Shown here in pieces: positions 445 through 52,156 of a stretch of DNA of 64,000 nt (position 1 is the stretch's first letter; each line of letters opens with the position of its first letter). A program made the position numbers and the translations under genes. Source of the DNA: a virus; the IMG/VR virus record IMGVR_UViG_3300049846_001128, positions 1 to 64,000 of that record; one strand, 5' to 3'. The notes beneath the pieces are model-generated. The model did no database searches, was not told the DNA's origin, and worked only from the letters and a program-made list of their open reading frames with translations.

Positions 445-1590
445 TTACTTTTTAGCATTTTCTTCGCTTGCTTTATAAGCGTCTTTTGACTTCTTAGCTT
501 CTAAACAACGATCAATCAAGTCTTTCTTAGTGTGTAAGTTTTCAAGCAAAACTTGGTTTGTGGTAAATTCTTGAACGTTTTTAAGATTTACCAGTGATGC
601 GTAACAGTTCTCAATAGGAGAGTCCATTAGGAAGTTATAGTAATTGTCAACTTGCTCTTTAGTCAAAGTCTTGTCTTCTAACAAACGCTTTAGCTCTTCA
701 ATAGCACTGTTAGAAACTTGAGAAACAATGTCAGTTCTTGGAGTTTCAAGCTCCTCGCCAGTCTTAGGGTTTTTGAAGTAGCTAACGTAAGTGTTTCTTA
801 CTTTGTTATATTGGTTAAGAATTTCCTTACCATCAACAATCTTGGCTTGACTCTCCTTCCAAGCACCATAAGCAATCATAGCTGTTGTACCAACAATTCC
901 CATGCCGCATTCACGGAAAAGATTGTCAGGAATTCCAGTGTTCTCAAGCTTTTGTAAACGATCCCAAGAACGTCGAGAAGGTTTAACAAAGTCAAGAGTA
1001 ACAGGGGCAAGGTCTAACTCCTCAAGAAGTTTTGTTTGAGTCTGAAGGAATCGAGAAATAGGACTATCTCCGTATTTCTTAGCCATGAATGAATGGAATT
1101 CTTCATGAGTCGGATCAAGGTTAATGTGAACAAAGCGATCAGCAAAAGCTTTGTCGGCAAAGTCAAGCACTGAATAATCATCTGTAGCAGGATTCATTGC
1201 CATAATGATCATCGAGTCAGCCGGAAGTTCATAATCGTGAAGTGTACCTTCCAAAGCAAGCTGGAAAATAGCCTGTAAAAGGTCTTTTGAAGCTCTGTTA
1301 AGCTCGTCAAAGAATAAGATTGACTTAGGCTTTTTAGGAAGCTTAGCCGGGTGAATAAAGCTAACTGAAAGAGCTTTGCCATCTTTGTTGCGATTAAATT
1401 CTGGTAGTCCCAAAATGTCGCCGGTATCTGCCATCTGCCCTAGAAAGTAAGGGTGAAATGAGTAGCCGTTCTCTTTTGCATACTGAGCGACAACGGATGA
1501 CTTACCAATGCCGTGTTTACCGATGATATTTGGTACAAGTCCGGCTTCTTTAAGAAATGGAATAACAGTTTGAAGTTGCGTGATGTTCAT
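445..1590 (-). CDS. MoxR-like AAA+ ATPase
   Basis: Walker A GKHGIGKS, Walker B ILFFDELNRA, MAMNP, FADRF and SRRSW motifs; start moved to ATG 1590 with GGAGG RBS. Confidence 0.85.
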   Translation of the reverse strand: MNITQLQTVIPFLKEAGLVPNIIGKHGIGKSSVVAQYAKENGYSFHPYFLGQMADTGDILGLPEFNRNKDGKALSVSFIHPAKLPKKPKSILFFDELNRASKDLLQAIFQLALEGTLHDYELPADSMIIMAMNPATDDYSVLDFADKAFADRFVHINLDPTHEEFHSFMAKKYGDSPISRFLQTQTKLLEELDLAPVTLDFVKPSRRSWDRLQKLENTGIPDNLFRECGMGIVGTTAMIAYGAWKESQAKIVDGKEILNQYNKVRNTYVSYFKNPKTGEELETPRTDIVSQVSNSAIEELKRLLEDKTLTKEQVDNYYNFLMDSPIENCYASLVNLKNVQEFTTNQVLLENLHTKKDLIDRCLEAKKSKDAYKASEENAKK

Positions 1591-1632
1591 TATTTCCTCC
1601 TGTGGAAAGTTAATCACTTAAATTAGTATAGC

Positions 1633-2112
1633 TTATTTAATTTCCTGTGTCAAACTAATTCTATTAAAATTCTTGCTTTTATTTTCACAAACAACTAGCT
1701 TTTTTTCCACCAGTTTTTTTAAAGCTTTAATACTAGTTTTATAATTCATATTTAACATTGGCAAAAGTTTAGTCAATCCGTTAACTTCACCGGCTTCTTT
1801 AATAGCCGAGTAAAGCATGAATTCACTCGGAGTTAAGTCTGAAAAGAGTTTAGACAAAGGCTTTATTGGAGCTTTTACTTCCCGCTCTTTGTGAATGCGC
1901 TTAGCTTTTACCTTTTTCTGCTTTCCATCAACGATTAAATCAATGGTAAGTTCTTGCCCACCGACTAATATCCTTCTTCCTTTCGGAGTCATTCCTAAAA
2001 TCTCAACTTCAGTGCTGGAAGAAAAGCCCAAGATTGGAGTTGCTTTAAAAATGCTGTTGAAAGTTCCAACGTCTTGAAAAGGTTTTGACTCAAATAATTC
2101 AATTAAATTCAT
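1633..2112 (-). CDS. Winged-helix DNA-binding protein (C-terminal HTH)
   Basis: LTPSEFMLYSAI...LNMNYKTSIKALKKLVEKKLV resembles a MarR-type wHTH. Confidence 0.6.
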   Translation of the reverse strand: MNLIELFESKPFQDVGTFNSIFKATPILGFSSSTEVEILGMTPKGRRILVGGQELTIDLIVDGKQKKVKAKRIHKEREVKAPIKPLSKLFSDLTPSEFMLYSAIKEAGEVNGLTKLLPMLNMNYKTSIKALKKLVEKKLVVCENKSKNFNRISLTQEIK

Positions 2113-7513: not shown

Positions 7514-7915
7514 CTAAATTAAGCTTTTATTTTCCAGATACTCGCTAACGTCAACGCTTTGAACGTCTGCACGATAGTCAATAAATAGCTGCTCGCCTTT
7601 CTTAATGTCCCTAGCTGCTTGGAAGCGCATTAACTTACGGCTATTCCAGTCAATCAAGCCATAAAGCACATTGGCGTTGTCATCATGGTTGAATATTTCG
7701 CCATCGCCTAAAACTAAACAATCTTGCTTTAGCTCAGCGTTATAAGTGAAAGTGTAATACTGTAAATCAGTTTCATTTACTCTTTTAGTGTCCTCAGGGC
7801 TTAAAACTAAAAGCTCACAATTAGTTATAATCTCACCTAGCTTTATATCCCTCTCGGCAATAACTCCCCTTCCCATGCCTTCAATTAATTGTACTGAATA
7901 AATTGGCTTTTCCAT
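7514..7915 (-). CDS. SET-domain protein (lysine methyltransferase fold)
   Basis: GMGRGVIAERDIKLGEII, FNHDDNANV and AARDIKKGEQLFIDY are SET motifs. Confidence 0.88.
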   Translation of the reverse strand: MEKPIYSVQLIEGMGRGVIAERDIKLGEIITNCELLVLSPEDTKRVNETDLQYYTFTYNAELKQDCLVLGDGEIFNHDDNANVLYGLIDWNSRKLMRFQAARDIKKGEQLFIDYRADVQSVDVSEYLENKSLI

Positions 7916-8023: not shown

Positions 8024-8200
8024 TTATTCGATTGTTGCGTTAGCAATCATATTTTCCATTACAAAAGTATCTACCTCATAAGCCCTTGAGTCATATACCT
8101 TAGCTTCCTCAAAGTTGCCACGGCTGAATTGAAAATCTGCTAGGTTTTTGTAATGCTTGGCTAGTTCGATTAAGTTTTGAGTAGTTTGGTCCATTTTCAT
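8024..8200 (-). CDS. Hypothetical 58-aa protein
   Basis: Read manually: MKMDQTTQNLIELAKHYKNLADFQFSRGNFEEAK...; AAAGGA RBS. Confidence 0.6.
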   Translation of the reverse strand: MKMDQTTQNLIELAKHYKNLADFQFSRGNFEEAKVYDSRAYEVDTFVMENMIANATIE

Positions 8201-8241
8201 TTCCTTTGTTCGGCTATCGCCTCGTCATTCTCTTGAATAAG

Positions 8242-8269
8242 ATATTACCACAATGACAAAGGAAGTCAA
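8242..8269 (-). promoter_or_regulatory. sigma70 promoter
   Basis: TTGACT-16-(TG)TAATAT. Confidence 0.55.
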
Positions 8270-8465
8270 TAGGTTTTTTCTTTTTATTTTAGTCTTATCC
8301 TCGTACCATTATACAGATTGACAACCTTATTATATAAGAAGCTTTTTTCCAGCGTTAAAAAGAGGGTTAAGCATGAAGCCCGTAGTATTATGCCCTAAGG
8401 GAAGCCAATAGCATATCTTGTCATCGTGGGATTATGAGACAAGCGCAAGGGGAAAAAAGGTTACA

Positions 8466-8614
8466 TGGCAGTGCTTTTGCATGTGACATTCTTTACATAG
8501 TGCAACCGATTGGCACAAGCCTTGCAGCGAACTAAAGAGAAGTTGTTTGGCATATCAAACTAAATGCTCAGTAGAGTATTAGCTTTGTTATGCTCGGTTG
8601 GCACAGTTTTTGAA
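8466..8614 (+). promoter_or_regulatory. Cluster of sigma54-type -24/-12 boxes
   Basis: TGGCAG-N5-TTGCA (8466), TGGCAC-N5-TTGCA (8511), TGGCAC-N5-TTGAA (8599). Confidence 0.5.
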
Positions 8615-8745
8615 AAGAAAAGCCCAGACAATCATGTATTAAACAAATTGCCTAGGCTTGGTGAATGGGTAAAAAAGCAAGGTTCCTTGCTCTTAGACCT
8701 GTGTTATTTCACAAGCTTAGTGATCCCTAGCCTTGGTCATATCCC

Positions 8746-8774
8746 ATTCTAACATGCCTTACACTCCTTGTCAA
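8746..8774 (-). promoter_or_regulatory. sigma70 promoter
   Basis: TTGACA-17-(TG)TAGAAT. Confidence 0.7.
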
Positions 8775-8882
8775 TAGCTTTTTTCCATTGCCAAGCATTA
8801 TTTTCCAGCTCCTAGCATTTCCAACAACTTAATAGCTTAACCTAAATTGTGGCTAAAGTCACTGCCTGTCAAAAGAAAAGTG

Positions 8883-9089: not shown

Positions 9090-9220
9090 TGCTAGCCAAG
9101 TGGAAGCCGAGGCACCCCCACTACCTAGGCAAAGGCTAGGGGGGGGGGTAGGTGGTTATGAGTGTGAGTGTGGAGTTGAATATCTACGAATATATATTTG
9201 GCTATTTTTTAATTCATCTG

Positions 9221-42400: not shown

Positions 42401-43504
42401 TCAGAGTCGGATCGTTGCTACATCATCTGGCTACCTTCTAAGCCATCGGACACTGTTGCAACACAGGCGTTTAGATATAACACGTTTACTCGAGCGTGGA
42501 CTAGATGGACAAAACCGGCTAATTGTGGTCTAGTAAATCTCGAAGACGATAAGATTTATTTAGGAGATGCTTCTGGCAGATATTATGTACTAAGGGAAAG
42601 AAAAAATCTTGAACGACAGGACTACGCTGATCGCGACTTTACGCTCCAGCTACCGACTGAATTCGTGAATGGTACAACTTATGATATTTCCTCAGCTATT
42701 GAAATTGAGGCAGGGGATGTGTTAGTTCAAGAACAGTATGTAGACATTAACAAGTTCAACAGAATGTTAAAAAAGTTAGACAGAGAAGTTGCTTTGTCTG
42801 GAACCTATTTGAGTGAGCTTGAAATGGTTATTGGCGATAACATGGAAGTTTCAATACTTGCCTTGTGGAATAAACTCACCTCTGATGGAATTACGCTATC
42901 CCCTTTATCTGGAGGAAACACTGCAGTTCAACTACAAACTGACTTCAACTCCATAGTGTCAGTTTTAAACGATCCACTGTCAATAACTGGAGCTAAGGAC
43001 TATAAAACAGCCGATGATTTGCTAGTTTACGAAACTCTAATCTTGGACGTTAATATTCCTGCAAATCAAGTCACGGTAAAATTCAGCACTAACTTTCTAG
43101 TTGGAAACGTGCAAGTGTTTAAAGCCATTAAGAGTAAAGTTCAGTATGTTCCTCAGCATTTTGGAAAGCCTGAAACTACTAAGCAAATATCGGAAGGTAC
43201 GTTTATATTTGACCAGACAAACTTCTGGGGAGGAACTGTTGGTTACTCAACAGACAGGTCTTATGACTTCTCCAGCATAAGCTTCACAGAGAAAGGACCG
43301 GGAAACTGGGCTGGCTTTGACTGGGGTAGTGCAGTCTGGGGAGGTGGAGGTAATGAAGTACCTGTTAGAGTTTTTGTGCCAAGAGAGAAGACTCGTTGCC
43401 GATATATTCATATCCAGTTCATGCACAGTAATGCAAGAGAGAAGTGGAGACTGTTAGGAGTATCTCTGGAACCTAGAGAAGTTTCTCCACGAGGGTACAG
43501 ATAA
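39452..43504 (+). CDS. Tail nozzle / tubular protein B-like (P22 gp10 or T7 gp12 type)
   Basis: 1350 aa; GALEIADNV..EQRRG N-terminus, NRVYFSKP propeller, FCCH-like inserts. Confidence 0.65.
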   Translation: MPSLTASRGLITSPNELARPDGALEIADNVVIDYDNTIEQRRGFAEFGDATPDDEQIKQLLVYKGRILRHYADKLAFDSTGSGSFVEFNGSYMELATKLRIKYLESNGNLYFTTTEGIKKISALSASDFTSNAGYITNAGGVKAVGLEGKIKPEASGWLPAQSKVGYRIAWGIKDANNNVIRGVPSSRLVITNSSSDVNIGERFTVTVLNHAGISDSDYFTFDTPSNKFALWFDKTGSATAPVAAELLNRSLYKVDIKNLTLDNDVAAQIAAVLSTISDISVEISTNEVTVSNVDGGDVLDASNGTLDPADVIVSTIYNGQTAVGTPANVQLTFTVPYGVDSDLYFYEVYRTAVTTVTTGVTLSDLDPGDECQKVYESGVTQAEITAGSVVVDDITPDTFREGGAYLYTNPVTGEGILQANEAPPIAKDIALFKGSVFYANTKERHRNQINLLSVSDFISGSSKIHIGNSNGVRTYTFRGIAEVLDFTVKPKSETVGNSYAIINSAQDRIKYKIWFDKGEIYHTFNSTTDVDDATETITVVNHGFADGDSVIAGGVLPTGLTSGNTYYVINRTANTFQLSSMVGGLAIDLTDVVGNGTLTHLPIEPVVADTISLRVALETYPDTLQGSADAFVDAFFDISDFSPEDQGSGLVRVFNTDNGASTDPSESTPASSWTISVNTQGAGEDAGLGYVLLSGLSSVGQSVEDTARSLERVINKDPNSSVNAFYLSGPTDLPGILLLEARSLSDTAFYVAVNDSTISDKWNPSLPLSATITDIQIVGNLFTTSSAHNFSTGDKVYINDNPNGTSVEFSGVYTVATTPSATEFTLASITVTINQSAISGLVFETTVASDNSANQNRVYFSKPYQPEAVPLVNYIDIGPKDKAIQRILALRDSLIVLKEEGVYLISGPSAPDFSVRLVDSSALTLAPDTAVNLNNLIYVLTTQGVVTVSETGVGVLSRNIENKIQEIANSKYDYKLTSWGVASESDRCYIIWLPSKPSDTVATQAFRYNTFTRAWTRWTKPANCGLVNLEDDKIYLGDASGRYYVLRERKNLERQDYADRDFTLQLPTEFVNGTTYDISSAIEIEAGDVLVQEQYVDINKFNRMLKKLDREVALSGTYLSELEMVIGDNMEVSILALWNKLTSDGITLSPLSGGNTAVQLQTDFNSIVSVLNDPLSITGAKDYKTADDLLVYETLILDVNIPANQVTVKFSTNFLVGNVQVFKAIKSKVQYVPQHFGKPETTKQISEGTFIFDQTNFWGGTVGYSTDRSYDFSSISFTEKGPGNWAGFDWGSAVWGGGGNEVPVRVFVPREKTRCRYIHIQFMHSNAREKWRLLGVSLEPREVSPRGYR

Positions 43505-43914
43505 TGGCTAAGCTCTCCGACATTAGAAGAATTATACCAGAAGACTTTGCAAAAGAAGACAGAGATGCTGCTGAGAAAATAGCTGGCTCTTATAACGAGT
43601 TCGCTGACGAGGTTTATCAGCTTATAAACGGGAACTTAGACTTTTCCAATCTGGCAAGAAACAAAGTAACTGTTGATGTTACTTTTAAAACAGATGGCAC
43701 ACCCAACGTTCCAACAAATATTGGAACAACACTGTCTTCAGTCTCCATGATTCACATTGGGAATGTTCAAAACATGACCAATTCATCCGAGAGACTTACG
43801 TCCACTCCTTTTATATCGTGGACTTTTATAGGCAGTGGCATTGTTAAGCTCAATTATGGCATTGGATTTACAGCTGGAAGAAAATATAGGTTAACGCTTG
43901 AGCTGGTTAAATAA
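43504..43914 (+). CDS. Tail-associated protein
   Basis: ORF; TAATG coupling. Confidence 0.6.
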   Translation: MAKLSDIRRIIPEDFAKEDRDAAEKIAGSYNEFADEVYQLINGNLDFSNLARNKVTVDVTFKTDGTPNVPTNIGTTLSSVSMIHIGNVQNMTNSSERLTSTPFISWTFIGSGIVKLNYGIGFTAGRKYRLTLELVK

Positions 43915-43929
43915 GCAATTTTAGACATA

Positions 43930-44211
43930 GCTTTACTTATACAGAACAATTGTTCCTTGAAAGTAAAACCAGTCGCTTGCGAGCAAATTGGGCGAAAGGC
44001 TTGGGCTTTTAACCTAAATTTCTCTCTTCTTCAGTGGTCCAAGTTAGAAGTAACACTGATACTAGCTGGCTTTCCGCTGGGTACTTAGTGGCTTTGCGAC
44101 ACCCAGATGACTATTTCGTTTCCTACGCCGGGTCATACATCGGATTCACTTGTAAATCCTCTATTTCACGGTCCAAACTAGCGAAGATAAGTCCTTGATT
44201 TCTCAAAGACT
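43930..44211 (-). ncRNA. Candidate structured non-coding RNA
   Basis: sigma70 promoter upstream; several stems with G-U pairs and a GAAA tetraloop on the minus strand; no credible ORF; 3' end uncertain. Confidence 0.6.
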
Positions 44212-44216
44212 CTAAT

Positions 44217-44245
44217 AGTATAAAGTATTTGGTAGCTTTTGTCAA
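44217..44245 (-). promoter_or_regulatory. sigma70 promoter for the candidate ncRNA
   Basis: TTGACA-17-TATACT. Confidence 0.8.
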
Positions 44246-44289
44246 TAGAAATAGTAAATTAGCAACCTTATAGTGTAGGTGAGGGCATA

Positions 44290-46887
44290 ATGGCATATCT
44301 ACAAGATGACGAACAAGACGAGAACGCGCAAGGGTTAAATCAAACCTTAGCACCTAGTCAAACAGCTCAGCCTGAACAAGAGCAACAACCTGCTCAACCT
44401 CAGCAAACATCGCAACCCGCCACTATCGGGTCTTCCGCTAGTCCTACCACACAAGCATCAAGCTCCCCAACACAAGTTAATCAAAAGGCTGGATCAGGTA
44501 CTTTTACTAATCTTAAGAAATATTTACAAGCTAATCAGGGTAATAGAATTGCTTCTGCTGCAACTCAAAAAGTTGCCAATTTAGGAACTGGGGCGCAAAG
44601 AGGTATTCAAACCGCTCAAACTGGTTTCGGTCAGAAGGTTGAACAAGGTACTTTAAAAGACAGGCAAAAAGCTGTTCAAGACGTTACTGCCACAACTCAA
44701 GCCGCTCGTCAAGTTCAAGCTCAACAGCCTCAACAACAGCAAGGAGTTTTAGACGTTAACACTCCGACTGCCAATGCTGCTGCCACTGCCGCTCCAGCTC
44801 CTACACCTCAAGTGACTCAACCACAGTACTTAACTGATGAGCAAAAAAATCGTTTTGCTGAGGTTATTAACGCACAATACGAAGGACCGGAATCTATTCG
44901 ACAAGCTGGGCTTTTACAACCAGCTCTAGAGAGAGTGCAGGAAGCAAGTCGTCAAATAAGAAACACGCAATCTACTCAAGGTCGTGAAGAGTTACTCAGA
45001 TCAATGTTTGCCAAGAACCGAGACTACACTCAAGGTCAAAGCAAGCTAGACGCGTTACTTCTCAACACTTCTCAGCAGGGTGTGAATCAGTTACAACAGG
45101 CTGCAAAAGCTGGAGGAAATCTTCAACAGCAGCTTCAACAGGCTGAGAATCTGTCCCAAAACTTGGCGAAAAATCGTGCTCAGGAAATTGCTGGAATTCG
45201 CGAACAAGCTAGGAATGTTTTTACTGGCGAAAGAACTGCCGAAGAGCAAGCCACTGAGCAAAGAATTACAGACCTTATCGAAACTCCAGCAAAAGACGAG
45301 GGCGGAAATCCAATACCTAAGCTCGATGCTAAAGGAAATGCTGTACTAGACCCTGAAGGGAAACCTGTATATCTAACAGAATGGGAAAGACTTCCTGAGC
45401 ATTTTCGTCAATCCTTGATGAATAAAAGTAAGTCCAACAAAGTTATCAAAGCCGAACAGATAGCAGGTCTTAAAGAGCAATATGCACCGCAGATACAAGC
45501 GTATAATGCAGCTAAAGTAAACGTAGATAATTTGCAGAAACAGGCAAGCGATTTAAATCGCAGAATAGTTCAGGCTAGTTTTAAGATTTCAGAAGATAAT
45601 GCAAATGGCGGCCCCATTGATTCAGCAGCCGAGAGGAAGTTCTTAGAAAAAGCTGCTCCAAATTTGGAAAAACTTAAGCAGCAATTAAATCAAAGTAAGA
45701 AAGAGCTATTGTCTATTGAAAAATCACCTGAGTATAAACAATATCAAGCTCAGGTAGCTCAAGCTAATAAAATGAACATGAATCAGTGGGTGCTTTCTCC
45801 AGAAGAGGCGGCAATTCTTGGCGTTGCTTCAGGTGAAGGCTTGTATAACATGCGCCCAGATGACATTCGCACAGTTCAGGCTGAGCGTGAAAAATTAATC
45901 ACTCAGGATGAATTTGCCAGACAACAAGCTCTGGCTCAATTAGCTGGACTTGACGCTGCAAAATTACTACAAAAAGATTTAAAGTATAAAGATCAATCAA
46001 AAGCAGGAACTCAGAATTTAATGAGTGCCTTAGATACTGAAGCGTTTAGAAACCAGCTCAATGAAGCCCAAAGACTTTTTGAAGAAAGCGCAGAAGGAGC
46101 AACTCTAACAGGAGTCGGTAAGAAGAAAGTATCTCGCGGAAATATGTTTGGTAAGAAAACAAAGACTTACAAAGCTCAAGTTAAAGGCAATGTTGCTGAC
46201 ATGCTTAAACAAGCTGGTTACGATATTGACAAGATTGACCCCGGACAAGCTCAATCAATCCTAACAGATGAAGACATGCTTAGCCGATTTCTCGGAGCCA
46301 CAGACACACAAAGAGCGGAACAGGGAAATGTAGGTTTTAGCGGAGCTGAAGGTTCCGTAACAGGAGCTGGTGTAGGCACAACAGTAGGCTCTGCCGTACC
46401 GGGAGTTGGGACAGGAATCGGAGCTGCAATTGGGGCAGGAGTGGGTGGAGCTGTTGGAACTAATAGTAGTCTTGACAATCTGCAATATACATCAGACATG
46501 CTCAAAGAACTTGAAGAAAAGTTTGGAATTAAAGGAGCTGGAGCGATAGGTCAAGCTATTCAAACAGGAAGATCAAAAGCTGGGGATTTAGCCGGAACTT
46601 ACTTACAATTAAATCCATTCACTAATGTTGTGGATGATGTTGGTAAGAAATTAGGGCTTGGTTCTTTATCGAGTGGAATTGCTGGAGCCATCGGTGGAAT
46701 TGATACTGGAGCTATGAAAGCCTACGGAAGTGCTATTGCCAAAAGAAACGCCATTATGGATTTAGAGAAGAAGTACGCCAATTATTTGAAAGGTCAAGGT
46801 TTTGCAAATCGTGCCAATATCGCAGACACCGAGACAACTCGCGCTAGAACCCAAGCACTTCTTGATTTATTAAGCAGGAAGGGTTAA
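44290..46887 (+). CDS. Internal virion / DNA ejection protein
   Basis: Gln/Ala-rich helical protein with glycine-zipper GAGVGTTVG..GAAIGAGVGG. Confidence 0.65.
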   Translation: MAYLQDDEQDENAQGLNQTLAPSQTAQPEQEQQPAQPQQTSQPATIGSSASPTTQASSSPTQVNQKAGSGTFTNLKKYLQANQGNRIASAATQKVANLGTGAQRGIQTAQTGFGQKVEQGTLKDRQKAVQDVTATTQAARQVQAQQPQQQQGVLDVNTPTANAAATAAPAPTPQVTQPQYLTDEQKNRFAEVINAQYEGPESIRQAGLLQPALERVQEASRQIRNTQSTQGREELLRSMFAKNRDYTQGQSKLDALLLNTSQQGVNQLQQAAKAGGNLQQQLQQAENLSQNLAKNRAQEIAGIREQARNVFTGERTAEEQATEQRITDLIETPAKDEGGNPIPKLDAKGNAVLDPEGKPVYLTEWERLPEHFRQSLMNKSKSNKVIKAEQIAGLKEQYAPQIQAYNAAKVNVDNLQKQASDLNRRIVQASFKISEDNANGGPIDSAAERKFLEKAAPNLEKLKQQLNQSKKELLSIEKSPEYKQYQAQVAQANKMNMNQWVLSPEEAAILGVASGEGLYNMRPDDIRTVQAEREKLITQDEFARQQALAQLAGLDAAKLLQKDLKYKDQSKAGTQNLMSALDTEAFRNQLNEAQRLFEESAEGATLTGVGKKKVSRGNMFGKKTKTYKAQVKGNVADMLKQAGYDIDKIDPGQAQSILTDEDMLSRFLGATDTQRAEQGNVGFSGAEGSVTGAGVGTTVGSAVPGVGTGIGAAIGAGVGGAVGTNSSLDNLQYTSDMLKELEEKFGIKGAGAIGQAIQTGRSKAGDLAGTYLQLNPFTNVVDDVGKKLGLGSLSSGIAGAIGGIDTGAMKAYGSAIAKRNAIMDLEKKYANYLKGQGFANRANIADTETTRARTQALLDLLSRKG

Positions 46888-49547: not shown

Positions 49548-51533
49548 ATGGACGATAATTTATTTGACGACGAAAATATCCATCCCCAAGCTTTAGAAAC
49601 AACTCAAGCTATGGACGATTCTTTGTTTGATGATAGTCAAACATTCCAAGAATCTGCGCCACAAGGTTCAGATACTACCATGTCTTACGCTCCAGCAAGA
49701 GTTATAACAGAAACCGTGGCAAAAGCCGGAGCAGCTATTCCCGAGTTGGCTGATAAAGCTCTGACAAAAACTGCGGCAGCATTAGGACCATTTACTGAAG
49801 GTCAGCTTGAACTTGTTAAACAAAATAGAGACCAATTTAAAGCAATTCAGCCACAAGAATCGCTTTCTAAACTGGAAGAATCTTTCCGAGGAATTAACCG
49901 AAATGTTGACGAGCTTGGAAAACAAGCCATTGGTAGTCTTGAACAAGGTCTTACTCCTCAACAGTTGAAAGAAATGGTCGGTCAAACTACTGAGCAATTC
50001 TCAAGACCAGTTAATTTAGAAGACCCAACAATTAAAGCCCAAATGGCGGCAGAAGAGTCTCGACTTACACAAGAGTTTGCGGAAAAAGCTCAGAGAGGAA
50101 TGGAAAAGTCTTCAATTAAACAAGCCCAAGAATTTGCCGCACAGAAAGCAGAAGAGGCTGTTAACCAAGCCAAAGCTGCTAACATGGGAAGTATTTCTGA
50201 CGAAGCTGCGGACGCAATTCGCTCCAGCACCATCGAAACAATCATGGCTGCGCCAGAAAAAGCTGGTTTTAAACCACAACAGACAGAAGAAATGCTCGCT
50301 CAATTTCGTGCTTTAAAAGAAGCTCAAGCTAATATTCCAAAGAAAACAATTGAAAGCCTACAGTCACCACTGGCAAAAACATTTCCTCAGTTAGAGGGAA
50401 GAGTTTTAACAACAGCTAAGCCGAGTGAGTTTACTCGTGCAGCTTCATTACTTCCAGAAGGAACTTTACCTATGACTGGTGAAGAATCTTGGAACATGCT
50501 TCGTCAGCTTAGAGAAGAGGCTTACAAGCCAACTGGTGAAGTTAGTAAAGAAGTGGCGAAAGCTGTAAGTCAGAATGTAAGAAATTATGTCGAGCAAACT
50601 TCTCCGGCTGCTTCTGATTTATTTCGTCAACAAAGCGCAGAGATTGAACGGCTTAAAAAACTTCAGAAAGAAGGTTTGCTTACCCGTGAAAAAGGTATTT
50701 CAAAACACGCACCAGAGTCTGTAAAAGTTGGAGAGAAAGAAGCCAAGAGATTGTTCAACGACATGCTTGGTGGAAAGGTTCAATTGACTGATGATGTTGC
50801 CCAAAAGATTGCCGTTCTTAGAGAAAATATTGATCCTAAATTGTTTGATGAACTAAGACTTGCCGCAATCAAAGCCGCAGCAGAAGACCCAACAAAAGCT
50901 TTTAACATTAAACCGTTTGAAGCGGTTATGGGTTTAAGTGGAATTGGTTCTTTACCAACAGCTGGATATATGGGAGTTAAGTACGCAAAAACGCCAGAAG
51001 GTGCTTTAAAAATTGGTGACTTAGTAAATACCGTTTCTAGTGCAATTCCAGCGGGGATTAAATCTGCAGCAAAGACTACAGGAAAAGTTTTAGGAGAAGC
51101 TTTGCCAATTCTAGGAGCCGGAGCCGGAGCAGCAATGGGCTATCAAGAGGCTACCGAGGCTGGTTTTGACCCTTGGGAAAAAGCCGCCTATACAGCGTTT
51201 GAAGCCGTAAACCCGGTTCCAGTGTCTGGGATTGAAATGGCTAAACAGTATCAAAAGAGTAGCCAAACTACATCAAAAGCTAATATTAATGACTATAGCG
51301 CACAGTTTAGAACTCCAGACTATAGATTCAAGTCAACAGACAGTGCCAATATGCAAAACTTAGCAGATAGATTGGCTGAGTTCCAAGGTAATAAAGCTGC
51401 CCAAATGTGGGCTAAAGAATTATCAGACGTTTCCACTCAGTCAGAGGCGCAAAAAGACGCTACACTGGCAAGACTTAACCAGTTGAAAGAGTTCAGAGAG
51501 CTTGTGAGAAGAACCAAGGGGATTAAAGAGTGA
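49548..51533 (+). CDS. Internal virion / ejection protein
   Basis: Helical, with Gly-rich ALPILGAGAGAAMG segment. Confidence 0.6.
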   Translation: MDDNLFDDENIHPQALETTQAMDDSLFDDSQTFQESAPQGSDTTMSYAPARVITETVAKAGAAIPELADKALTKTAAALGPFTEGQLELVKQNRDQFKAIQPQESLSKLEESFRGINRNVDELGKQAIGSLEQGLTPQQLKEMVGQTTEQFSRPVNLEDPTIKAQMAAEESRLTQEFAEKAQRGMEKSSIKQAQEFAAQKAEEAVNQAKAANMGSISDEAADAIRSSTIETIMAAPEKAGFKPQQTEEMLAQFRALKEAQANIPKKTIESLQSPLAKTFPQLEGRVLTTAKPSEFTRAASLLPEGTLPMTGEESWNMLRQLREEAYKPTGEVSKEVAKAVSQNVRNYVEQTSPAASDLFRQQSAEIERLKKLQKEGLLTREKGISKHAPESVKVGEKEAKRLFNDMLGGKVQLTDDVAQKIAVLRENIDPKLFDELRLAAIKAAAEDPTKAFNIKPFEAVMGLSGIGSLPTAGYMGVKYAKTPEGALKIGDLVNTVSSAIPAGIKSAAKTTGKVLGEALPILGAGAGAAMGYQEATEAGFDPWEKAAYTAFEAVNPVPVSGIEMAKQYQKSSQTTSKANINDYSAQFRTPDYRFKSTDSANMQNLADRLAEFQGNKAAQMWAKELSDVSTQSEAQKDATLARLNQLKEFRELVRRTKGIKE

Positions 51534-52156
51534 AAAATCTGCTTGACGCTTTAAAACAAATGGACGAAATGCCTCAAGACAACTATGTTGAGGCTCCACA
51601 AGCCCCAATTGAGTCTGGAGTTGACTGGAAAACTATTGATCAGTTTGAAGGTGGAAATCAGCAAAAGGGCTACGTCCCAAAATCTGGCAAGTCTGGCGTT
51701 ACTGTTTCTACAGGTTTTGATGTAGGGCAAAGACAGAACTTAGAAGGTCTTTCTCCAGAGGTTCAAGTCAAACTACAGCCGTTTGTAGGAGCAAAAAGGG
51801 ATGAAGCTCAAAGAAGATTAGCTAGTATGGGAGGAGTTGAATTAACTCCAGAGCAAGCCCAAGAAGTAGCCGGTTTTGCTAAGAATGAAACAGAGCAGAA
51901 AATGAGAGATGAGTGGGCAAAAATGTCTGATATTCCTTTTGACAGCCTTACTCCTGCTCAGAAAACAGTTATGGCGAGTATTATACACCAGTACGGCACT
52001 TTTAAACGCGCACCAAGATTTTCCCAGTTTGCAGGAAAAGGTCAGTGGGAAAAAGTTGTTAACGAGCTTAGAAATTTTAATGATGAATATAAGACAAGAA
52101 GAAACCGAGAGGCGGATTATTTGCAAAAGTCCTTAAACAAGTTGGCTAAAAATTAA
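51530..52156 (+). CDS. Pesticin-like (T4-lysozyme fold) muramidase, probably virion-associated
   Basis: FEGG..GYVP..SGVTVSTGFDVGQ...QYG...RRNREA. Confidence 0.8.
   Translation: MKNLLDALKQMDEMPQDNYVEAPQAPIESGVDWKTIDQFEGGNQQKGYVPKSGKSGVTVSTGFDVGQRQNLEGLSPEVQVKLQPFVGAKRDEAQRRLASMGGVELTPEQAQEVAGFAKNETEQKMRDEWAKMSDIPFDSLTPAQKTVMASIIHQYGTFKRAPRFSQFAGKGQWEKVVNELRNFNDEYKTRRNREADYLQKSLNKLAKN

Follow-up and report, generated by a model that had tools for sequence, protein, structure and literature searches.

Structured RNAs of some 290 nt with a conserved tertiary architecture are rare, and most of those studied further have turned out to be ribozymes, sensors or scaffolds of ribonucleoproteins; the orphan ornate phage RNAs ROOL and GOLLD are still unexplained. 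Among described RNAs these two come nearest to the element considered here, a non-coding RNA (ncRNA) predicted on the minus strand of IMG/VR virus record IMGVR_UViG_3300049846_001128, an uncultured virus of 84,740 bp rated complete, of which the first 64 kb (positions 1 to 64,000, hereafter the window) were analysed; judged by the parts of the ROOL and GOLLD source drawn on here, the RNA falls outside both families. On the same footing, the likeness lies in a phage-encoded, covariation-defined RNA that has a complex multi-helix fold with tertiary contacts and whose function is not known. The gap in which the element lies probably holds an independent gene for an ncRNA of ~287 nt, a folded RNA that would bind a partner and act in trans.

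One ROOL example measures 659 nt, many GOLLD RNAs exceed 800 nt, and such RNAs often lie near tRNA islands, according to the portion of the source consulted (10.1101/2024.12.08.627333), whereas the RNA here has ~287 nt, lies in 64 kb without a tRNA and has no Rfam match. A preliminary description of the locus, made from the letters alone, had remarked on the lack of tRNA or transfer-messenger RNA (tmRNA) hallmarks, and ARAGORN found no such gene in the window. Rfam returned no match at gathering score across the whole window and, at E up to 10 over 43800–44400, only a chance small nucleolar RNA match outside the RNA; nothing was matched on the homologous elements of loci L001 and L013, and no family of Rfam 15, with GOLLD, ROOL, OLE, HEARO, raiA, 6S, pRNA, RNase P, tmRNA, ribozymes and riboswitches among them, was matched. 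Literature searches yielded no description of this RNA. Candidate structured RNAs of 29–151 nt have been drawn from intergenic covariation in uncultured viral contigs of IMG/VR (PMC10690425; Fremin, Bhatt and Kyrpides 2023), and the portion of the main text available names no such element, although a fragment of the RNA may stand unnamed among the supplementary candidates. On these comparisons the RNA appears to fit no described family, and it has neither an isolate-phage match nor a bacterial homologue. New here are the four-way-junction and kissing model, a paralogue, a distant genome carrying both types, and a swap of the slot's content.

Phi29-type pRNA is phage-encoded, ~120–170 nt long and transcribed from a host-type early promoter, and it folds into a multi-helix, three-way junction with functionally important loop-loop pairing between molecules. 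The RNA here is likewise a structured phage RNA with a host-type promoter, a multi-helix junction and loop-loop pairing, but its junction is four-way and the Rfam family of pRNA does not match it; there is also no hint of an RNA-dependent motor, since the phage encodes a T4-type large terminase and a P22/SU10-like portal (Pfam, window open reading frames (ORFs)). In purine and lysine riboswitch aptamers, junction nucleotides are held by a distal loop-loop contact of neighbouring arms, and the element shares with them invariant junction nucleotides and a loop-loop contact between adjacent arms. It differs from them in being free-standing, with its own promoter and end hairpins and without an expression platform, and it is not a riboswitch leader, because no gene lies downstream on the same strand and the next features are convergent plus-strand genes. 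A four-way junction, an arm stacked directly on the closing helix (P6 on P3) and a loop-loop contact also recall tRNA-like and Y-RNA-like folds, but neither the loops nor the lengths of the arms resemble those of a tRNA, the contact is made by arms two and three and not by arms one and three, and the ORFs scanned included no recognisable Ro or Rsr gene.

Fold, strand and promoter of the type A RNA

Homologues were reached through the 136-amino-acid (136-aa) protein encoded beside the gap, which pointed to a single related contig containing a comparable gap, and the family was then gathered by exact-motif scans; with eight identical copies dropped (L004, L035, L007, L048, L034, L036, L026, and L039), 15 distinct sequences remained of the type to which the window RNA belongs (type A). 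RNAalifold folds these 15 into a structure of 79 pairs, 27 of which have at least one sequence changed on both sides (compensatory pairs), and 97.5% of 1182 cells are paired, so that the covariation among homologues by which the preliminary description proposed to judge its structured RNA is present. None of 500 column shuffles reached the observed pairing, compensatory-pair count or covariation score, values that ignore the relatedness of the sequences and are not probabilities, and sliding the partners by 1–3 columns lowered pairing to 36–47% and compensatory pairs to 2–7, so that the difference from the controls is large. The helices named from the single sequence, namely the AGUCUUUGA-GAAA-UCAAGGACU hairpin, GCUAGUUUGG/CCAGCUAGU, GGAUUUA/UGAAUCC, AUGAC/GUCAU, CUGGGU/ACCCAG, and UCAGUG/CACUGA, all occur both in the minimum free energy (MFE) fold of the minus strand and in the RNAalifold consensus of the 15 homologues.

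G-U wobbles had been said to work only on the minus strand, and in the alignment 149 G-U cells stand against 8 A-C cells; the same helices read on the plus strand are 85.6% paired as against 97.5%, and RNAalifold gives -57.5 with 79 pairs for the minus strand and -45.9 with 67 pairs for the plus strand. It is thus the minus strand that is read, as both this asymmetry and the conservation of the promoter indicate. No conserved ORF was found on either strand (4 of 16 homologues have no ORF of at least 25 aa and those of the others are inconsistent), which rules out a small protein gene. The core appears to be under selection, its mean column identity being 95% as against only 53–62% identity in the adjacent protein. 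Covariation, the G-U asymmetry, the kept promoter, the lack of a conserved ORF and the lack of an Rfam match together support the proposal of a new, independently transcribed, structured minus-strand ncRNA. The promoter and the predicted transcript lie as follows.

44217–44245, minus strand: sigma70-type promoter, with -35 TTGACA at 44245–44240, a 17-nt spacer and -10 TATACT at 44222–44217
~44211 to ~43925, minus strand: whole predicted type A RNA, ~287 nt, its 5' end placed from the promoter and its 3' end from the last conserved hairpin

The promoter had been called near-perfect, and TTGACA-17-TATACT indeed scores 11/12; the site alone is weak evidence, because a scan of 2 kb found 4 promoter-like sites where 2.7 were expected. 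A TTG-type -35 and a -10 lie upstream of every type A copy in the aligned place (n = 16), and the aligned TTGnnn-16/17-TAnnnT is the best-scoring site in 13 of the 16. An extended -10 TG occurs in 13 of the 16 best promoter sites, while the window has no TG and near-consensus hexamers instead, so that the conserved promoter shows a trade-off between consensus hexamers and the extended -10 TG. At the other end, neither a terminator-like site nor a U-tract was found after the terminal hairpin, and the lack of a U-tract rules out the reading of the element as nothing but an intrinsic terminator. The predicted 3' end falls ~11–14 nt short of the convergent stop codon (43912–43914) and overlaps no gene, and the type A copy of the distant genome G010 likewise ends a few nt before a convergent stop codon. 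The earlier view of the RNA as antisense thus applies to its orientation opposite to the late genes; antisense pairing with a neighbouring gene would need read-through, for which the missing terminator-like site leaves room.

The multibranch domain foreseen in the single sequence takes the form, in the consensus of the homologues, of a four-way junction, with the following parts.

44190–44211, minus strand: P0, hairpin closed by a GAAA loop at the predicted 5' end (MFE fold)
44023–44189, minus strand: P1 (44189–44183 with 44029–44023), enclosing the core and P7, 98.1% paired, 2 of 7 pairs compensatory
44061–44182, minus strand: four-way-junction core (consensus fold)
44182–44173 with 44069–44061, minus strand: P2
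44171–44169 with 44076–44074, minus strand: P3, which closes the junction
44164–44137, 44135–44108 and 44106–44077, minus strand: arms P4, P5 and P6
44090–44129, minus strand: proposed loop-loop (kissing) contact, pairing G44129, G44128 and C44127 in L5 with C44090, C44091 and G44092 in L6
44031–44059, minus strand: P7 hairpin (UCAGUG/CACUGA), variable, 6 of 7 pairs compensatory
43928–44014, minus strand: 3' domain, with a small hairpin (44014–44004), a helix (43995–43973) and the terminal hairpin (43971–43928, UGGUUUUAC...GUAAAGCUA)

P0 varies in sequence and the hairpin is kept, with three of its four scored pairs changing on both sides, while the long terminal hairpin is conserved in sequence itself and is kept even in the type A copy of G010 (G010A). 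Within the core, P6 follows P3 directly without a linker, a single base joins P4 and P5, and P4 contains a conserved GA/GA internal loop. The junction strands GACCGUGAAAUAGAG and AGCGGAAAGCC are unpaired and invariant. A covariance model of the 126-nt core (R1), built from type A only, describes the family by its P2/P3 closing helices, three arms and these two junction strands, all of which the window RNA has; it scores the window core at 143.6 bits, the window sequence being in its training set.

The kissing contact emerged from a scan for covarying columns outside the helices, in which column 89 with column 124 is U:A in 13 sequences and C:G in 2, a signal that extends to three base pairs joining the first part of the P5 loop to the central part of the P6 loop. 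The three pairs read as follows.

13 rows: GC, GC, UA
Window and L005: GC, GC, CG
G010A: CG, CG, GA
G010B (the type B copy of G010): CG, GC, UA

In an alignment of both types (A5), whose underlying model did not include the contact, each of the three pairs shows changes on both sides, and pairing stands at 97%.

Type B paralogue and the gene slot in relatives

A diverged second copy of the core, termed type B, lies elsewhere in the window.

8337–8464, plus strand: type B core, in an ORF-free stretch of ~650 nt (8200–8850) among minus-strand genes

R1 finds this copy at 8339–8463 (+) with 30.8 bits (E 7.7e-6). A second model (R2), built from the type B copies of three other phages only (G001, G006, and G007), finds it with 45.6 bits (E 4.6e-10) and also finds nine type A copies at 18.6–28.1 bits and G010B at 23.7 bits, the window type A scoring 18.6 bits (E 0.011); all 11 R2 matches in 154,642 bases fall at RNA loci, with nothing else matched. 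Types A and B are thus one family, because the model of each finds the other. A MAFFT alignment of the five type B cores, in which the window copy was misaligned, was left out of the modelling. In alignment A5, which was fitted to the model helices and so favours them, compensatory changes occur in 24 of the 38 core pairs and pairing reaches 96.8% of cells; core helices covary freely, and the invariant unpaired junction strands are common to both types. Between the type B copies of G006 and G007 alone, compensatory changes occur in P3, P5, and P6.

The distant member L013 is of type B, and its genome, G010 (79,614 bp), also carries a type A copy (R1 55.4 bits, E 3e-13) with a fully re-paired closing helix and a shortened P4, lacking P0, P1, and P7. 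This copy lies between homologues of the same two genes that flank the RNA in the window, one flanking protein being 52% identical and the homologous N-terminus of the 865-aa protein following the RNA slot. The window RNA itself has a minus-strand sigma70-type promoter and occupies the interval from the 136-aa gene to the large Q-rich gene. Searching with a profile of the 136-aa protein recovered 11 viral loci, and in 9 of these type A directly follows the gene. The other two (L078:2906–3250 and L083:2915–3262, both minus) have another non-coding sequence in the slot, ~330 nt long and in the same orientation as type A, 89% identical between the two, with 9 of 79 predicted pairs compensatory between these two sequences and with promoter-like hexamers upstream on the same strand (by eye). 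This sequence has no Rfam match, and homology to the RNA was ruled out, R1 and R2 (filters off) giving nothing at the slot below E 1. That sister phages have a different RNA in this slot hints at a possible exchange of RNA genes among phages as accessory cargo, which, if true, offers a testable way into counter-defence or host takeover by RNA among freshwater phages that are uncultured.

All 9 stretches of the first viral exact-motif scan are members, the 11 of the second comprise the 9 already known, L013 and a chance match (L012), and the 9 of the third were all known already. Of the 25 metagenome stretches, 13 are members and the other 12 are chance matches, the best R1 score among them being that of L037 (E 0.15). 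None of 11 pattern matches in bacterial genomes is a member; these are GC-rich, coding-looking DNA without an R1 match at E up to 10. With a pattern spacing of 93–123 two matches appeared (L050 and L051), both coding and due to chance, and a spacing of 31–61 gave no match.

Other conserved sequence stands beside the type B copies. In the window the copy is preceded by TTGACAACCTTATTATATAAG, which contains the motif AACCTTAT. A TGGCAC-N5-TTGCA sequence, the sigma54-type -24/-12 consensus, lies downstream of the type B core at 8511–8526 (+) and is kept in G001, G006, and G007 (L053 ~425–440; L055 ~1595–1610); it may be a functional promoter, or else belong to the RNA. Farther downstream of type B in G001 and G007 is a further conserved non-coding stretch (L053 ~575–720 (+) and L055 ~1745–1870 (+)) whose opening nearly repeats the type B 5' leader (GGAUAAG.CUCGC) and which may be a third RNA element.

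Proposed mode of action and its rivals

In the trans-acting reading favoured here, of which sequence comparison establishes the anatomy of a gene together with the fold, the strand and the family, host RNA polymerase would read the minus strand from the sigma70-type promoter and the product would fold into a four-way junction closed by P3, with arms P4, P5, and P6. The tips of P5 and P6 would touch through the 3-bp loop-loop contact, thereby fixing the shape of GACCGUGAAAUAGAG and AGCGGAAAGCC, and the 5' and 3' hairpins would cap the molecule. As one member of a pair of diverged paralogues, in a new family seen in a single group of freshwater podovirus-like phages, the RNA would act in trans through its shape, a partner (protein or small molecule) being bound at the invariant junction, and not through pairing with messages; it would be made early, as an accessory host-interaction factor. 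Action through shape is suggested because the junction strands are invariant while helices and peripheral hairpins change freely and both copies keep the core, a pattern of conservation that, by analogy, would suit protein or ligand binders or catalysts rather than base-pairing regulators. Early expression is suggested by the host-type promoter and a role as accessory cargo by the exchange of slot content between sister phages. Phage accessory cargo is often aimed at the host. The host-type promoter and the slot exchange together favour a trans-acting decoy or scaffold, ahead of a ribozyme or aptamer and, behind that, cis interference with late transcription. That the accessory factor is specifically a decoy against a host defence component is the weakest step and is put forward only tentatively.

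A number of observations weigh against this reading. The single-sequence fold proves nothing, because its energy is unremarkable for the composition (z -1.29 for the minus strand, z -0.69 for the plus strand, neither significant); the type B region of G010 is likewise not significant (z -0.37). To this are added the disregard of relatedness in the column shuffles and the fitting of alignment A5 to the model helices, both mentioned above. The family is narrow, with 16 type A and 5 type B sequences, many of them close kin, so that a limited number of events lies behind the compensatory changes. R2 (default filters, whole record) did not detect type B in the 95%-complete relative G005, which does not establish its absence there, because in G001 and G007 the type B copy sits close to a contig end. 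With no terminator-like site at its 3' end, the RNA may run on into the tail gene as antisense. No RNA-binding, reverse transcriptase, Ro or ligase gene is recognisable among the 40 window ORFs scanned against Pfam, and the sequencing runs listed for the stretch include no RNA run. The anti-defence idea, finally, draws only on the early-type promoters and the slot swap.

Types A and B have the same invariant unpaired junction strands amid freely covarying helices, and a covariation-backed loop-loop contact joins adjacent arms; both features would also suit a ribozyme, or a ligand-binding, aptamer-like RNA working alone, in which junction and kissing loops would form a catalytic or binding pocket; comparable architectures are those of riboswitch aptamers and the hairpin ribozyme. 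This is nonetheless unlikely, as no Rfam ribozyme or riboswitch matches even at E up to 10, there is no downstream gene on the same strand for riboswitch control, and the small self-cleaving classes are far shorter than this RNA. A four-way junction with such invariant bases and a covarying tertiary contact is needless for mere stability or for interference, and so counts against an early cis-acting transcript set against the late tail and ejection operon, with a structure that is mainly stabilising and with late transcription blocked or delayed, or read-through late messenger RNA (mRNA) paired. Such interference would account for the orientation opposite to the late genes, for the back-to-back arrangement of the promoter with an enriched plus-strand motif before the 865-aa gene and, through the missing intrinsic terminator, for possible read-through into the 136-aa gene; it has no need of a paralogue in a different genomic context, the RNA stops before the neighbouring stop codon in close and distant relatives alike, and the explanation is accordingly judged improbable.

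Less probable still is a replication-origin or primer transcript, by which RNA made by host polymerase would prime or open an origin in the gap. The large non-coding gap, the strong host-type promoter and the phage's own family B DNA polymerase, DnaB-like helicase and ERF are in keeping with it, but a conserved tertiary RNA fold is not something that origins usually require, no direct repeats and no AT-rich unwinding element were seen, although no search aimed at them was made, and two paralogous copies, along with an unrelated RNA in the same slot of relatives, fit it poorly. Least credible of all is a functional plus strand, as a structured leader or processing site for the mRNA of the 865-aa gene: the gap lies directly upstream of that gene and Watson-Crick helices are possible on both strands, but on the plus strand the 149 G-U cells become A-C mismatches and pairing falls from 97.5% to 85.6%, the RNAalifold structure is weaker with fewer pairs, the conserved promoter faces the other way, and a separate plus-strand motif lies between the element and the ATG. 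A plus-strand leader was rejected on the G-U/A-C asymmetry and the weaker plus-strand fold.

The trans-acting reading can be carried further, to an early aptamer-like particle that captures a host defence component, either an immune signalling nucleotide or a defence protein, and in this specific form it is a long shot; in a variant of this idea, the invariant junction might be the active site of a new ribozyme class. Phages use protein 'sponges' against signalling-based immunity, and the captured-component version, if true, would be their RNA counterpart, the two paralogues and the replacement of the slot by an unrelated RNA then being traces of an RNA-gene arms race. The core, at ~125 nt, is compact enough for probing, crystallography or cryo-electron microscopy, and natural compensatory variants come along with it.

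Flanking genes, plus-strand motif and other observations

The gap was described as 375 bp, and the plus-strand ORFs do stop at 43914 and resume at 44290 (gap 43915–44289). Its surroundings are as follows.

43504–43914, plus strand: upstream flanking gene, 136 aa, without a family match, which marks the syntenic slot
44264–44277, plus strand: AACCTTATAGTGTA motif, 26 nt ahead of the ATG at 44290 and back-to-back with the promoter of the RNA
44290–46887, plus strand: downstream flanking gene, 865 aa, Q-rich, without a significant family match

Homologues of the 136-aa gene adjoin the RNA in relatives, while no relatives were found through the 865-aa protein. The statement that the segment is GC-richer than its flanks holds for the adjacent windows (0.44 at 44000–44199 vs. 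0.38) and not for the neighbouring genes (0.48–0.49). The AACCTTATAGTGTA sequence is one of 12 window matches to the motif AACCTTATNNTNTA (1 mismatch allowed), where 3.06 were expected and none of 100 shuffles reached 12. Plus-strand matches include those at 8323, 11957, 17529, 21160, 22633, 26564, 37873, 44264, and 54606; five matches lie 13–32 nt before plus-strand ORF starts (11970, 17561, 22659, 37903, and 44290), and one lies directly before the type B RNA. The motif is a candidate phage-specific promoter or -10 context.

The phage looks like a podovirus. Besides the replication genes already mentioned, Pfam recognised a ribonucleotide reductase among the window ORFs, and no RNA polymerase was recognised among the 40 scanned. 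In isolate phages, blastn (distant mode) with 43500–44700 gave no match, and a tblastn search with the portal found remote relatives only, the best at 26.6% identity in a Silvanigrella aquatica phage. The sequencing runs containing the stretch are DNA runs labelled freshwater only. Contigs from four runs (three studies) match the stretch at 95–100% likeness, with differences listed at 43794, 43830 and 44285 onward, in the flanking genes, and none listed in 43925–44245; such confinement to the flanks is at best a weak hint of constraint on the RNA, because the cover is patchy.

Other gene content includes a pesticin-type lysozyme domain, a SET-domain protein and a MoxR-like AAA ATPase, and also a DUF2201 VWA/metallopeptidase protein adjoined by a LAGLIDADG endonuclease; the loci of these genes are window 51530–52156 (+), 7514–7915 (-) and 445–1617 (-), and L066 18942–19766 (-) and 18127–18942 (-). 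A run of ~ten G (ctagggggggggtagg) occurs at window 9140–9150 (+), in a region with short ORFs only.

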